A stretch of 64,000 bases of DNA from a virus, in the IMG/VR virus record IMGVR_UViG_3300047564_002353, positions 1-64,000 of that record, one strand, 5' to 3'. Below, piece by piece: positions 13,640 through 34,933 of this stretch. The stretch's first letter is position 1; each line of letters opens with the position of its first letter. The notes below the pieces were generated by a model. It ran no database searches, had not been told where the DNA came from, and worked only from the letters and a program-made list of their open reading frames with translations. The position numbers and the translations under genes were made by a program.

Positions 13640-14323
13640 TTATTTATCGTACCAAACACGCTTTCCATTTTCGACGGTCCAGCTACGACCTCTACACCCG
13701 TTAGAGACAATTATTTTTCCTCGATTATTTTCATAAGGACTTAATTCAGGCATATCGCTTCTCCTAATTCTCCAACCTTTAGTTTGTTTTTGAAATAAAT
13801 GAGAGTCAGGATTATTAAGTGCCGATGGCATACTTTTGTCCACGCCGTTTTCTTCGCACCATTTTGATATATTTTGTACGTAAGTTTCTTCTGGATTTTC
13901 AACTCGACTGACGTACCAACCTTTTGTTCTTTTTTCTGCTTGCTTTTTAAACCAGGATTTTTTCTCAGAATCAGATAGATTGTTGAACCATATTCGGGCA
14001 CCTTCCATCTTATGACGACTATAGTCTATATTATCGTAAGGAATAAACTTACTCAAATTGCCACCAATGCCTCCGTTAGCTAAATTATAACTCATAGGAT
14101 CAGTAGTAGCATTAGTTTTGTTGATCCACTCTTGTTCTCGTAAATTAAGTTCTGTTTCACAAGAACAGGACTCGAGAATTTCTTTAACAAAATTCTCTTG
14201 GCCATATTTTTTATATGCTTGTTTAAGAAGCTTCCCTGATCCCATGTAATTAGAGTCAGTGCCGTTATGTTTTCCTATATACCAACGCCCATTGATTGTG
14301 TTTGTTATTTTATAAATGTACAT
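13640..14323 (-). CDS. free-standing GIY-YIG (Seg-like) homing endonuclease
   Basis: YIYKITNTINGRWYIGKH, YMGSG, KKYG..NF.KEIL, LN.RE..WI, YNL..GG. Confidence 0.9.
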   Translation of the reverse strand: MYIYKITNTINGRWYIGKHNGTDSNYMGSGKLLKQAYKKYGQENFVKEILESCSCETELNLREQEWINKTNATTDPMSYNLANGGIGGNLSKFIPYDNIDYSRHKMEGARIWFNNLSDSEKKSWFKKQAEKRTKGWYVSRVENPEETYVQNISKWCEENGVDKSMPSALNNPDSHLFQKQTKGWRIRRSDMPELSPYENNRGKIIVSNGCRGRSWTVENGKRVWYDK

Positions 14324-15084: not shown

Positions 15085-15113
15085 ATTATATAGTTACTAA
15101 AAAAAAATGTCAA
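15085..15113 (-). promoter_or_regulatory. consensus sigma70 promoter, leaderless, with dyad TAGTAAC-N8-GTTACTA
   Basis: TTGACA-N17-TATAAT-GTTACT-ATG. Confidence 0.88.
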
Positions 15114-15430
15114 CCTGGTTGTTGGAGGACGTTATTAGCAGCTCTAACTGCGTCAGAATTATTATCCTTAGCAGGTTCTCCTACTGTAGGTAGTTCCTTT
15201 TCTTTAGTTTTAATAGTAACACCGTAACTACTAAAATTTTGAACTAAGTTTTTTATATTAGGATCTTTATCAAAATTCATTTTAAATGAGTCATAGTCTA
15301 ATTCTTGACCTGTGACATTTTGATAAATTTTGCTGATAGCAGGCCAACTAAATTTTGATGGAGTATTTTTAGAGTTGGCCCGATGTTGTAAACTAGAAAG
15401 AACGCGAACCAGGTCCGCGCTCTCTGTTAC
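15110..15430 (-). CDS. 106-codon -1-frame extension of the 301-aa protein (VTESADLVRVLSSLQHRANSK...VLQQPG)
   Basis: stop-free for 106 codons, no ATG/GTG/TTG in its first half, begins exactly at the slippery site. Confidence 0.75.
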   Translation of the reverse strand, partial: VTESADLVRVLSSLQHRANSKNTPSKFSWPAISKIYQNVTGQELDYDSFKMNFDKDPNIKNLVQNFSSYGVTIKTKEKELPTVGEPAKDNNSDAVRAANNVLQQPG

Positions 15431-15439
15431 TTTTTTTTT
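15397..15439 (-). promoter_or_regulatory. putative programmed -1 frameshift signal: A_AAA_AAG plus 13-bp hairpin
   Basis: TCA AAA AAA AAG TAA C-AGAGAGCGCGGAC-CTG-GTTCGCGTTCTTT. Confidence 0.75.
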
Positions 15440-16332
15440 GAATTTAAGATTTGGCCTAGTTTTCTACTATAGTCTACACTTTCTCTACGTGCTCGGCCTG
15501 CTGCTTCTTCGCCACCTGCTGCTGGAGCCGAAGTAGCGAATTCGTCACCAGCTGCTGCCACTTCGCCTTCTAGGCCGGCTTCGGCACCTGGTTCCATCAT
15601 TTCAGGACTTCCCATGCCTGGTGCTTCTTCGCCTGTTATAACTGCTACAGCTTGTGCTAGAGCAGTTCTGTTTGTTTCTAAATTAGTATATAAATCGTCT
15701 AATGCTGGTTTAACTTTTTGTTCAAATTGATTACTAATATCTGATCCAAGTTCATCTCTTATAGAGTCCACTAATTCTAACAACGCCTCTGATTTCAAGC
15801 TGGCAGTAGCTTCGATCCATCCAGTGATTTTATCTACCATATCGCGAGCTTTCATAATTAACGCTGCTTTTTCTTCTTCGCCTTCTGTAATTACTTGCTC
15901 ACTTAGTGCTTGCCTTAAAACTTCCATTGCTTCGCCTACACTTTCTTTTTTAGCCATCTTAGTAGCCGTAGCATACATTACTTCGTCGCCTTTTTTACCA
16001 TAACGTTTTGAAAAATCGCCTTTGACTTTCTTCATACCCTTCACATATTTTTCACGCTTTGATTCTTCATCTGGACTTAAAGAACGTTCCGATAATGCTT
16101 GAACAATAACATCTAAAAATGCACGGTCTTTACGATATTCTGTATTTTCATAGACTGCATCATAATTCTGGCTAGATTCGAAATTAGCGATTTTGTCCAC
16201 TAATTTATCTCTAATAACCGCCAGTTGCTCATAGGTAAAACCTTCTAAATTAAGCTTATAGCCGAACTGTCTAGCCACGCTTTCGTTCAATGTTTTACTT
16301 GTTTTTGGATGTGAAAGGTCTTTTACTTGCAT
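15427..16332 (-). CDS. putative head-internal/scaffold-like structural protein
   Basis: helical, acidic, E/A/G/P-rich tail; several (L/I)xE sites; TAAATA at 16360-16365 and SD upstream. Confidence 0.65.
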   Translation of the reverse strand: MQVKDLSHPKTSKTLNESVARQFGYKLNLEGFTYEQLAVIRDKLVDKIANFESSQNYDAVYENTEYRKDRAFLDVIVQALSERSLSPDEESKREKYVKGMKKVKGDFSKRYGKKGDEVMYATATKMAKKESVGEAMEVLRQALSEQVITEGEEEKAALIMKARDMVDKITGWIEATASLKSEALLELVDSIRDELGSDISNQFEQKVKPALDDLYTNLETNRTALAQAVAVITGEEAPGMGSPEMMEPGAEAGLEGEVAAAGDEFATSAPAAGGEEAAGRARRESVDYSRKLGQILNSKKK

Positions 16333-31219: not shown

Positions 31220-31583
31220 TTTGACTGTCGCCCGGAGCGATACGATAATTGTCTTCAACTGAATCTGCTGTACTAACTTCAAAAATCATGCTATTAGGTT
31301 GCAGTGCTTCTAACTGATGCGGTTGTAAAGGAGGGTTATGCCAAACATCTCCTTCTTTCAATAATTTTTCGTGCATGGTAGCTGTTTTAGTGTCAATGTA
31401 TCTCAGCATAAATTGACCAGCATTTACAAACCAAGTTTCATCCTTTTCTTTATGAAAGTGCATACTAAACTTAGCACGAGCTTTTTCAAACACCATGATT
31501 TTACCGCAGTACTGGTCGTTAGTAGCCCAGATAATTTCATAACCCCAACCTTTTTTTACTGTTCCTTGTAATCTTTCTGTCAT
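31200..31583 (-). CDS. cupin sugar isomerase (mannose-6-P/lyxose isomerase-like)
   Basis: KGWG.E, SMHFH..K.ET, P...H, EVST. Confidence 0.75.
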   Translation of the reverse strand: MTERLQGTVKKGWGYEIIWATNDQYCGKIMVFEKARAKFSMHFHKEKDETWFVNAGQFMLRYIDTKTATMHEKLLKEGDVWHNPPLQPHQLEALQPNSMIFEVSTADSVEDNYRIAPGDSQNDQSNS

Positions 31584-34500
31584 TGTTTTTTCCTAAAATA
31601 GTAATCTCCGTCTGGGCCATTAGTACTAAACATACCTATGTTCTCAAACCCTATACTGCTCATATATTCTATTACTGTGTCTTTTAGCGGAGCACCTTTA
31701 TTATATTCAACACTTTGAAGTTCTAGAATTATATGTTTACATTCTTTTAGTGTTTCTTGAGCACCTTTTAACACATCTAATTCTGCACCTTGCACATCCA
31801 TTTTTATTAAATCAGGCTTAGGCATTTTTTTAAGATTTACCACAGCATCTAACGTCACAGTGTTATAACTTCGTTTATGTGTTTCGTTAAAGTATTGTTC
31901 AGCTTCTGGATTAACTTCCGAGTTTTCCCTATAGTAACTATTACCACCAGGATGATAAGTGTTTTGATAAAACTCCACAGTCTTGCCTGTAGTGTCGCTG
32001 AGCACACCTATGTGATATTGTAACTTATTTTCTTTGTATAAAAATTCGCATTCAGGCATAGCTTCGAATACCACATACTCTGATTCAGGCCAAATGCGTT
32101 TAGCTTCATTAGTCCAATGAAGAACACAAGCACCTATATCATAAATCACTTTTGGTGTAATTGGTAAAGATTTAAGATAGTCGACATGTTGTTGCGGTAT
32201 CAATCTTTGACTGCCGAGTTCTCTAAGACGCTGACTTAAATCTACTTTATTATCAATTACAGGTGTCTTTTCAGAGACAATATCAAAGTATGTGTTTCCT
32301 ATATGTCTACATAAGATATTAGTATCAGCCCATATATTAAATCCTTTACTTCTGGCTTTGTTACAGAAATCAATATCTTCGCTGATAGTGTGTGCATGAT
32401 CCAGTGCAGAATAGTATTTGAATTGAGGATATCCAATACCACGTATAACTTCAGCTTTGATTAGTACACAACCAAAACCGCAGGCTGCAACTTCTACCAG
32501 TCCTCGACTTTGCAGTTTATGATATGGCATGTGTGCTACTCCGCCACGATCAGTTTGCTCATAGACTTCTAGGATTTGTTCTGTTTTTCTTTGTCTATAT
32601 ATAGCAGTGACAACATCTTTATTATGAGATAGCAATCTTGCTAGCGTATCAGAAGGGAAACTCATGTCCGAGTCTACAGCCCAAAGATAGTCGTAGCCTT
32701 TGTCTACCCAATCTGCAATTAGATTTCGTACTTGATCGACATTATATCCATAGAAGTACTGAAATGTGGTTTGGTAACCCTCGGGTATGATCTGATCGTA
32801 GATGCTCTTGAAAGTCTCCGCTTCGATGTTCCTCGCTGTGGGTATTGCTATCAATATCTTTTTTTTTGGCATACTTTGTTTGCTTATAATATCTTTGGCT
32901 GTTTGATTTTGTTCTTCGGCATTTACTTTATAATCATTTAAAGGATTAATATCATTATAATTATACACGATATCTTGTAGACATACAACCTTTTTTGGAT
33001 CTGCTTGTTCAATTAGTGCATAGAACACACTACCATCTCCGCCTGCTCTGTACCATTCGCCTTGAGAATTTTGAAATAGATTGTCATCGCAATTATTAAT
33101 CAAATACTTCTTAAATGTTCTTAAATGTGTATAAGGCAAAATCCAATTAAAATGGTAGTTTCTATAATCCTTACTTTGTTTTACTTGTTCTGGATAAGGT
33201 TGACTGATTAATGGAATATTGTCAACCATACTCCAACAACTACCATAGGTAAACTCTGTGTTACCATCATATATAGAATTGTAATAACTTAGGATAGTAT
33301 TATCATTAACTAGACTATCATCACCATCGAGTATCATTATGATACTGTCATTTTCTAATTTTCTAAACTGTTCTATTTGATTACGTACTGCACCTTGATT
33401 ATTGAAGTTAGTAATTACTGTGAATTTGTCTCTAATATGTTTAGGCAGTTCTGCCAGTGCTTTATTGATAACTTCTCCAGTATTATCTGTACTAGCATCG
33501 TTGATCAAGTAATGATGATAGTTTTCATAATCTTGACAAGCTACACTTTCAATACATCGTGCAATATAATCTGCACAATTATAGAAAGTACTTACAATGT
33601 TTATTCGTTGTTCAGTGGCAGATTTATAATTTTCAAGTTCTACAATATTGTGGTAACGTCTGCGCCAAACTTTGTGTACTCTATGATTGATTTTGCTGAC
33701 CTTGCGATATTCTTCTAAAGAAAGATATAGATTATTCTTTTTAAAGAAGAATTGCTTCCATTGCAGTGCCACAGTGTCCCATCCTGCTACAGGTTTGACA
33801 ATATTACAATAGTATTGTTTCTGTTGATGCAAGTAGGTATTATGATATGCTTGTACTACTTGATCTACAAACTTAACTACTTGCGATTCTAGGTTAATAT
33901 CTGGAAATAATACATTAGGTTCTATAGCATAATCAATAAGATAACAAGCATCTTCTAGAGCTATTTCTTCTAGTGCTCCAAACTTACAAGTTATCAAAGG
34001 AGTGTTATAGCATAAGCTTTCTAGTGTGCTGATACCAAATGTTTCAGGAAAAGCAGAAGGATAAATCATAAAATTAGCACGAGCTAATCTGTCTGCTATT
34101 TCTCGTTGTGGAATAACTCCTGTGAATTCTATATCTAGTTGCTGATTAACAGGATCATCGGCCATTACACGCCAATCTTTTTCCTGTTGATCAGGTTCTG
34201 CACTTTCGCTAAATCTATAATAACCACCAATTACTGTTAATCGTGCTTGAGGTAATAGATGTTTTACTTTAGGCCAAATATGTTTTACTAAAGGGATCAT
34301 ACCCTTGGTCACGCTGGCATTATATACAAATAAGTTTCTGTCTTTACTTTTAATATCTACTTGATCGTGATATAAGTTTACACCATTACGAGTAATAAAA
34401 GTTTTATTTTTCAGTACTTCAAAATTTCTTCTACGACCGTGATTGCAGTTCAACACATAGGTAAGATGCCAATCACTCAGTGTAAAGATATCAGTGATCT

Positions 34501-34933
34501 TATCTTCGACTGCTAGTTGTTCAATAAGATTATCGCCTAGGCAGAACGTATCATGCATCCAAAGTATTCTTTGTTTAGCTTTAGATAATATTCTTTCGTA
34601 CAAGTTCATTTGTGCAAATGGCCAAGCACGATTATCGTTTAGTTGCGGATATTGATTAGGATGACAAAATGGTATAACAGTTCTACTGCTGATCACAATA
34701 TCGAAATATTGATCTTCTGCAAGATTAGCCAGCGGAAGATATCGTACATTATCATATACACCAGGCTGTGCGTGATCTGTAGTACAATTATTAAAAACGG
34801 TGACATCGAAATTTAATGCGGCTAGTTCTTTGGACACCAGTGTAACTGCACTTTCTGATCCGCCTAACCCTTGTTTGAATACAGTAGTTCCGTCGTAAGG
34901 AATACCAATAATATCTATAATAGCAATTTTCAT
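31580..34933 (-). CDS. four-domain fusion: GT4 + GT2 + GT2-like + FkbM methyltransferase
   Basis: GLGGSE and YPS.FPETFGIS.LE (GT4); INDASTD and LDGDD (GT2); VDSD and GFGC.LIK; YDIGA, TLD, KMDVQGAE (FkbM). Confidence 0.9.
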   Translation of the reverse strand: MKIAIIDIIGIPYDGTTVFKQGLGGSESAVTLVSKELAALNFDVTVFNNCTTDHAQPGVYDNVRYLPLANLAEDQYFDIVISSRTVIPFCHPNQYPQLNDNRAWPFAQMNLYERILSKAKQRILWMHDTFCLGDNLIEQLAVEDKITDIFTLSDWHLTYVLNCNHGRRRNFEVLKNKTFITRNGVNLYHDQVDIKSKDRNLFVYNASVTKGMIPLVKHIWPKVKHLLPQARLTVIGGYYRFSESAEPDQQEKDWRVMADDPVNQQLDIEFTGVIPQREIADRLARANFMIYPSAFPETFGISTLESLCYNTPLITCKFGALEEIALEDACYLIDYAIEPNVLFPDINLESQVVKFVDQVVQAYHNTYLHQQKQYYCNIVKPVAGWDTVALQWKQFFFKKNNLYLSLEEYRKVSKINHRVHKVWRRRYHNIVELENYKSATEQRINIVSTFYNCADYIARCIESVACQDYENYHHYLINDASTDNTGEVINKALAELPKHIRDKFTVITNFNNQGAVRNQIEQFRKLENDSIIMILDGDDSLVNDNTILSYYNSIYDGNTEFTYGSCWSMVDNIPLISQPYPEQVKQSKDYRNYHFNWILPYTHLRTFKKYLINNCDDNLFQNSQGEWYRAGGDGSVFYALIEQADPKKVVCLQDIVYNYNDINPLNDYKVNAEEQNQTAKDIISKQSMPKKKILIAIPTARNIEAETFKSIYDQIIPEGYQTTFQYFYGYNVDQVRNLIADWVDKGYDYLWAVDSDMSFPSDTLARLLSHNKDVVTAIYRQRKTEQILEVYEQTDRGGVAHMPYHKLQSRGLVEVAACGFGCVLIKAEVIRGIGYPQFKYYSALDHAHTISEDIDFCNKARSKGFNIWADTNILCRHIGNTYFDIVSEKTPVIDNKVDLSQRLRELGSQRLIPQQHVDYLKSLPITPKVIYDIGACVLHWTNEAKRIWPESEYVVFEAMPECEFLYKENKLQYHIGVLSDTTGKTVEFYQNTYHPGGNSYYRENSEVNPEAEQYFNETHKRSYNTVTLDAVVNLKKMPKPDLIKMDVQGAELDVLKGAQETLKECKHIILELQSVEYNKGAPLKDTVIEYMSSIGFENIGMFSTNGPDGDYYFRKKQ

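Follow-up and report, generated by a model that had tools for sequence, protein, structure and literature searches.

The window analysed here is a stretch of 64,000 nucleotides (nt) of viral DNA, positions 1 to 64,000 of the IMG/VR record IMGVR_UViG_3300047564_002353, and is part of a 102 kb viral contig estimated to be 29% complete. On its minus strand, which carries all features given below with coordinates, a gene for a 301-amino-acid (aa) protein (P0001; 15427–16332) is followed by an open reading frame (ORF) in the −1 frame (P0002; 15110–15430), and the junction of the two is very probably a programmed −1 recoding site that yields proteins of 301 and 407 aa with a common N-terminus. Standard decoding would end at the TAA stop codon and give the 301-aa protein, predicted to be all-α, while a fraction of the decoding events would move to the −1 frame on a run of A residues, read a further 106 codons and give a 407-aa fusion ending in a winged-helix-like domain. 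We infer the shift itself from the conserved sequence signals at the junction. The most likely main route is ribosomal −1 frameshifting of the type known from dnaX and the IS3 family, in which tandem slippage of tRNA-Lys on A_AAA_AAG would be stimulated by an RNA hairpin 4–8 nt downstream.

An earlier reading of the window, made from its letters without database searches (the sequence-only reading), had described the end of the gene, the heptamer, the hairpin, a −1 frame of 106 codons lacking an early start and a product of about 407 aa, and all of these were found directly in the sequence. The 301-aa gene ends TCA (15441–15439) AAA AAA AAG (15432–15430) TAA (15429–15427) and its protein ends SKKK. 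The slippery heptamer A_AAA_AAG (15430–15436) has the X_XXY_YYZ form in the zero frame and is directly followed by the zero-frame stop codon; the A9 homopolymer to which it belongs (15431–15439) contains two A's beyond the need of the heptamer. The −1 frame begins one base upstream of the stop codon, reads GTA ACA GAG and encodes VTESADLVRVLSSLQHRANSK...QQPG (VTESADLVR...), terminating at TGA (15112–15110). Its earliest ATG, GTG or TTG is codon 51, and the predicted long product is therefore a fusion of 301 + 106 = 407 aa. A shift re-reads the bases of the stop codon as xTA followed by Axx, so the first residue of the extension is forced to be V, I or L.

The conservation of this arrangement was examined in 92 loci fetched from IMG/VR, some contigs being represented twice, which gave 50 distinct junction contexts (49 relatives and the window) with 39–88% protein identity. 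The A-run abuts the stop codon in all 50 and is followed by a −1 ORF of 102–115 codons. The run consists of nine A's in 42 contexts, ten in seven and eight in one; the adjoining stop codon is TAA in 49 and TAG in one; and the last base of the heptamer (Z) is G in 37, A in eight, C in four and T in one. Codon choice at the site is constrained: Lys-Lys is written AAAAAA in 50 of 50 contexts, against 44 of 178 (25%) elsewhere in these genes, and the codon preceding the lysines is TCA or CCA only. Where it encodes Ser (codon −4) it is TCA in every instance (40/40), compared with 23% of the Ser codons elsewhere, and where it encodes Pro it is CCA (9/9). The codons neighbouring the slip site have diverged freely among the relatives. 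The sequence-only reading had proposed that the heptamer, the hairpin and the −1 ORF be sought in relatives; the heptamer, as A_AAA_AAG, A_AAA_AAA or A_AAA_AAC, and the ORF recur in 50 of 50 contexts and a stable hairpin in about 41.

The hairpin in the window (15397–15425) comprises 13 bp, three of them G.U pairs, with a CTG loop, and has a 9 bp core in which 15421–15413 pair with 15409–15401. The extended stem begins 4 nt past the heptamer, and 8 nt separate the heptamer from the conserved core. With a minimum free energy of −17.4 to −17.9 kcal/mol (z = −3.46), the hairpin folds better than any of 200 shuffled sequences. Among the relatives, a hairpin with ΔG ≤ −13.9 kcal/mol is found 4–6 nt past the heptamer in about 41 of the 50 contexts, and in 14 contexts it is the most stable 50 nt window of the locus. 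Across the 35 sequences that could be aligned, pairing is kept in 87.9% of cases for the 13 pairs, compared with 41–49% for slid partners; double changes occur in nine of the 13 pairs, and the observed values were matched by none of 500 shuffles. RNAalifold recovered the 9 bp core with seven compensatory pairs. The stem is built of rare codons (GCG represents 4% of the Ala codons and CGC 16% of the Arg codons elsewhere), and in distant clades this position is taken by hairpins of unrelated sequence, such as a 13 bp perfect stem in the locus L080. Comparison with Rfam gave no credible family for the hairpin. An intrinsic terminator was also considered; a terminator scan found none, from which we conclude that the hairpin does not serve this function, and the T-rich tail that follows it is not conserved.

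Conservation at the protein level begins at the junction itself with the motif [V/I/L]-x-E, in which the glutamate at position 3 (E3) is invariant, followed by an amphipathic helix, and the −1 ORF is thereby shown to be under coding constraint from its first codons. There is no ATG, GTG or TTG at the junction in 39 of the 50 contexts, where GTA, ATA or CTA is the first codon and ACN, AAT or ATT the second; their first ATG, GTG or TTG occurs at codons 5–95 or not at all. The other 11 contexts have ATG as codon 2 of the −1 frame. The CTG that follows GAGAG in the window had been named as a conceivable independent start, but it is CTA in the closest relative and thus does not represent a conserved start codon. 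In current gene calls the downstream domain is either missing or shortened to begin at an internal start codon. Taken together, the conserved slip site, the adjoining stop codon, the covarying hairpin and the startless ORF, traced down to 39% protein identity, support the earlier claim of a −1 frameshift giving forms of 301 and 407 aa.

The AlphaFold2 (AF2) model of the extension has predicted local distance difference test (pLDDT) values above 90 for residues 11–70, with the first helix formed by residues 3–21, and resembles a winged-helix domain that starts at the junction. The domain spans residues 1–78 of P0002 and is followed by a flexible basic tail. Almost all of its structural matches are winged-helix proteins, including the winged-helix domain of MCM8 (Z = 6.4), Rok, LOTUS and ESCRT-II. 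An exhaustive profile search found the domain in 623 protein clusters. A word-based search for longer proteins containing the extension returned nothing, and fused forms surfaced only in the exhaustive profile search.

The 301-aa carrier protein P0001 is predicted to be all-α, with long helices, a disordered acidic linker rich in Ala, Gly and Pro (residues 236–280) and a C-terminal helix. Its family comprises 1153 homologues, nearly all of about 300 aa. Matches to PHROG families are weak (phrog_14154, annotated 'virion structural protein', 4e-8; also phrog_727 and phrog_12788), and neither the carrier nor the extension gave a significant match in Pfam or in sequence and profile searches of the PDB. 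In the ESM Atlas the carrier matched unnamed viral clusters, with a weak lead to DUF3008, and the extension had no match. The description of the carrier as something other than a tail chaperone agrees with these data: the gene downstream encodes an exonuclease (phrog_298), and no tail-chaperone PHROG or Pfam family was matched. DNA and protein searches of a phage genome collection found no full-length relative of the carrier, and the cultured relatives lack the gene. The sole matches in that collection were 50-residue hits to Synechococcus myoviruses in a Lys-rich segment (residues 78–130), and their context was uninformative. This segment (window ~15943–16101; KREKYVKGMKK...MYATATKMAKKE) shows about 60% identity to hypothetical proteins of these myoviruses and is swapped for unrelated inserts in distant members of the carrier family.

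The carrier and the domain occur in nature in three architectures. In addition to the frameshift type, an in-frame fusion is represented by the cluster P0228, which contains seven variants, mostly of 517 aa, from at least 13 contigs and with one common junction. Residues 1–362 of P0228 match P0001 (2e-33) and end LLCSKKK, after which the sequence continues ISED... into a domain matching P0002 (8e-14); the junction predicted for the shifted product is therefore found in a natural protein (SKKK-ISE). No DNA relatives of this fused lineage were found in scans of IMG/VR and the JGI metagenomes. The domain also exists as stand-alone proteins of 110–135 aa, which were hit many times and begin with a leader M[RK][ILF]xE[FLV]; the alignment of these proteins was too diverse for a locus scan, and single proteins were used instead. 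In six split loci (L092/L100 and L101–L105) the domain gene directly follows a P0001-like gene, with its own ATG and leader and without an A-run. The two genes overlap by ATGA in five of the six and are separated by a 1 nt gap in L103. In the locus L092/L100 (IMGVR_UViG_3300033182_000357) and in P0133, P0134, P0147 and P0268, the domain and its own leader stand at the N-terminal end of much longer proteins (261–771 aa), which contain Ala/Gly-rich or hydrophobic, possibly membrane-spanning, regions.

In a maximum-likelihood tree the frameshift type spans a clade of 52 rows, which encloses a single split and a single fused form, both in a subclade that also lacks the hairpin; an all-split clade lies at a distance on a long branch. 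The tree was rooted for drawing only and gives no direction to the change between the split and frameshift states. An ATGA overlap sets the downstream gene in the −1 frame, so a coupled pair of this kind might become a frameshift site. The three architectures together indicate that the fusion product is a natural protein in one lineage and that the gene pair is a conserved unit in all of them.

The sequence of the phage and its relatives also offers some indications of function. Two complete relatives, of 364 and 383 kb, encode proteins scoring over the cut-off for Peptidase_S77 (the T4 gp21-type prohead protease), together with a gp23-type major capsid protein, and on this basis the source is an uncultured T4-related jumbo phage of about 360 kb. 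Neither the protease nor the capsid family was matched in the 102 kb, 29%-complete fragment. T4-type proteases cleave after Glu, and capsid-targeting segments (CTS; propeptides of 10–20 residues) and the longer propeptides of giant phages direct cargo into proheads (PMC5694885). The N-terminal 17 residues of the carrier (MQVKDLSHPKTSKTLNE; 16282–16332) consist of a leader-like tag, M-x-[LIV]-x-[ED]-[LF], and a conserved L15-N16-E17; among 34 diverse homologues N16 and E17 do not vary, and the conservation of L15 is at least 90%. At the motif level this corresponds to a short N-terminal propeptide ending (L/I)-x-E, and the segment may be a T4-type propeptide or a capsid-targeting segment. At the junction, the motif [V/I/L]-x-E, partly forced by the stop codon re-read as xTA, occupies the place of the [LIV]-x-E that the stand-alone forms carry themselves. 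The 301-aa part may be a prohead-internal or scaffold-like protein that takes the extension domain inside the prohead; a gp21-type protease could release it there at [V/I/L]-x-E. The suggestions that the carrier is a head protein and that the VTE-S junction resembles a maturation-protease site are plausible at the motif level: the complete relatives encode the protease, the Glu of the junction is invariant and neighbouring proteins have CTS-like N-termini. One possible scheme, which we put forward tentatively, is an analogue of Gag-Pol in a phage: through the −1 shift, a protein of the prohead core would acquire a winged-helix cargo that binds nucleic acid, a fixed minor fraction would be packaged, and the protease would free the cargo at [V/I/L]-x-E, the first residue of which comes from the re-read stop codon; jointly with this scheme and with the same reserve, evolution may have switched the gene pair among the split, frameshift-fused and in-frame fused states.

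A tag related to that of the carrier, M-x-[LIVFAM]-x-[ED]-[LIVFM], heads seven of the 60 ORFs of the window, compared with four of 255 internal Met residues. The tagged ORFs, all on the minus strand, start at 16332, 18360, 20015, 22609, ~23013, 29224 and 57136. Examples are MKIKDVVIRE, MKIDHLLNE, MRAKEFLFE and MRFNEFKILSE, and one of the bearers is a 464-aa lysin-like protein. The same N-terminal tag starts the stand-alone winged-helix proteins and may be a capsid-targeting or propeptide signal.

Several observations weigh against the interpretation given above. A convincing hairpin is missing in nine of the 50 contexts (L026, L031, L056, L059, L075, L079 and the clade of L081, L089 and L091), which suggests that the structure helps but is not indispensable. 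No upstream Shine–Dalgarno (SD)-like stimulator, an element that dnaX and IS911 possess but that is not universal, was recognized, as judged by eye only; the one possible element is an AGG within conserved Leu-Gly codons, about 17 nt upstream, and this spacing exceeds that of dnaX. The 11 loci in which an ATG overlaps the stop codon (TAATG) could permit coupled reinitiation there, and the two A's retained beyond the heptamer are unexplained by ribosomal slippage alone. The scores of the winged-helix matches are moderate (Z = 5–6.4, Foldseek E = 0.05 or weaker, the H-S-H-H-S-S topology being compared). As to function, in one complete relative about 200 kb separate the carrier gene from the head module and its gp23-like capsid gene. 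The long A-run raises the alternative that the fusion arises mainly by transcriptional slippage, RNA polymerase adding one A on A9, with the hairpin serving another purpose or fine-tuning. The run comprises at least nine A's in 49 of the 50 contexts and is retained in clades without the hairpin, the preceding codon has A as its third base throughout, although the heptamer makes no such demand, and Z is variable; moreover, bacterial RNA polymerase slips efficiently on runs of nine A or T residues, as it does in Thermus dnaX (PMC5009743). Since the run has been kept at nine or more, polymerase slippage that places one extra A in some of the mRNAs may feed the same product; it probably contributes and could dominate in some lineages. 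An aside to this effect in the sequence-only reading has gained support from the surplus of two A's. As the main source of the fusion, however, we consider polymerase slippage unlikely. The hairpin lies downstream of the run and could not act on a polymerase that has yet to transcribe it, and nevertheless it is conserved with covariation at the spacing typical of ribosomal stimulators, which lie about 5–9 nt downstream, and in distant clades hairpins of unrelated sequence have taken its place. G occupies position Z in 74% of the contexts and is there the best base for slippage of Lys-tRNA in Escherichia coli. A second in-frame CCA AAA AAA AAG in a gene for a 1117-aa protein indicates that A9 is tolerated also at a site where slippage would cut the product short. 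Because the heptamer, its spacing and a covarying stem-loop are the defining features of sites of the dnaX/IS3 type, ribosomal frameshifting is taken as the main route.

Two further explanations dispense with recoding altogether. The downstream ORF might be an independent gene, translated by termination–reinitiation or from a non-canonical start at the junction without any fusion protein being formed, as could be argued from the split relatives, in which the domain has its own ATG and mostly an ATGA overlap, and from the TAATG in 11 of the 50 frameshift-type loci, for which gene callers give proteins of 105–106 aa. We regard this as very improbable: the other 39 loci offer no canonical start codon at the junction, the CTG of the window is not kept in its closest relative, and the leader M[RK][ILF]xE[FLV], present on every stand-alone form, is absent from all of the frameshift-type loci. 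Independent translation would also leave the A-run, the adjacent stop codon and the hairpin unexplained, and there is a lineage in which the two parts are fused in frame. Some sequencing platforms are prone to errors in homopolymers and the in-frame P0228 lineage illustrates that a difference of one base suffices for a single ORF, so that an assembly error (a true A10, which the sequence-only reading had named as grounds for rejecting its claim) or a recent pseudogenizing frameshift might be invoked. The probability of this is negligible. A homopolymer assembly error is excluded by the loci with ten A's, in which a −1 shift is still required, and by the agreement of more than 50 independent assemblies: the same frame relation is found in 50 distinct contexts from many independent metagenomes, the stop codon always adjoins the run, the hairpin covaries and the state persists across the tree to 39% protein identity.

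Programmed ribosomal frameshifting at this junction would closely resemble that of E. coli dnaX and of IS3 and IS911, in which A_AAA_AAG is read by tRNA-Lys, a stem-loop follows at a distance of a few nucleotides and two products that share their N-terminus are made in a set ratio. It would differ from dnaX in that the shift adds a folded 106-residue domain rather than truncating the protein, and from all three in that the stop codon abuts the heptamer, the run is A9 instead of A6, no SD-like stimulator was recognized and the gene is an uncharacterized one of a jumbo phage. With the transcriptional slippage of Thermus thermophilus dnaX and IS elements (A9/T9) it shares a conserved run of at least nine A's at the frame junction, where one extra A leads to the same long product; those cases have no conserved downstream hairpin, whereas here a covarying hairpin is placed at the spacing of ribosomal frameshift sites. 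In phage structural genes, a fixed minor fraction of the protein receives a C-terminal extension by a frameshift near the end of the gene, as in 10A/10B of T7, in T3, Lactobacillus phage A2 and Listeria phages A118, A500 and PSA, and in the tail chaperones G/GT (PMC5009743), and the present site would extend its protein in the same manner. Unlike the T7 10A/10B type, the carrier is not a major capsid protein (P0001 is predicted to be all-α and a gp23-like protein is encoded elsewhere) and the extension is winged-helix-like, not Ig-like; unlike G/GT, the pair has no tail-tube or tape-measure context and no chaperone homology, and it belongs to a T4-related jumbo phage of about 360 kb. The likeness to retroviral and totiviral Gag-Pol and to the CTS of T4 and the propeptides of giant phages is by hypothesis only, the fusion of a cargo, its packaging and its release after Glu being suggested here by motifs and by the gp21-like protease of the complete relatives.

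Literature searches found no report of such a recoding signal for this gene family and phage group, and we know of none in either. The site would add a well supported recoding event to a very large family of uncultured freshwater and environmental jumbo phages (1153 carrier homologues and 623 extension clusters), and the split, frameshift-fused and in-frame fused states of one gene pair constitute a natural experiment. As the site combines an A9 run with a covarying hairpin, the shares of polymerase and ribosome slippage should be cleanly separable. If the idea of packaging and cleavage is true, the pair would reveal the means by which giant T4-related phages bring a set quantity of a cargo protein into their heads.

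The genes upstream of the carrier encode uncharacterized proteins. Downstream, the exonuclease is accompanied by a GIY-YIG homing endonuclease, a fibre-like protein and ribonucleotide reductase. The homing endonuclease gene (SegE-like; 13640–14323) lies between the exonuclease gene and that of a 538-aa protein, which has Mtd_N and pectate-lyase-like domains and is probably a fibre protein or a depolymerase; the gene of this protein adjoins that of the large subunit of ribonucleotide reductase. Upstream of the exonuclease gene, a perfect σ70 consensus promoter (15113–15085) matches TTGACA-17-TATAAT at 12 of 12 positions. Its −35 hexamer includes the TGA stop codon of the −1 ORF and its spacer contains a T9 run. 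This overlap implies that the 320 bp gap noted in the sequence-only reading is coding right up to the promoter of the next gene. The second CCA AAA AAA AAG run (32859–32867) is in frame within a glycosyltransferase (GT)/methyltransferase gene (31580–34933, minus strand) encoding the 1117-aa protein. It is placed exactly where the GT-like N-terminus (MPKKKILIAIPT) begins, and a −1 or +1 slip there would truncate the protein after 39 or two codons, respectively.

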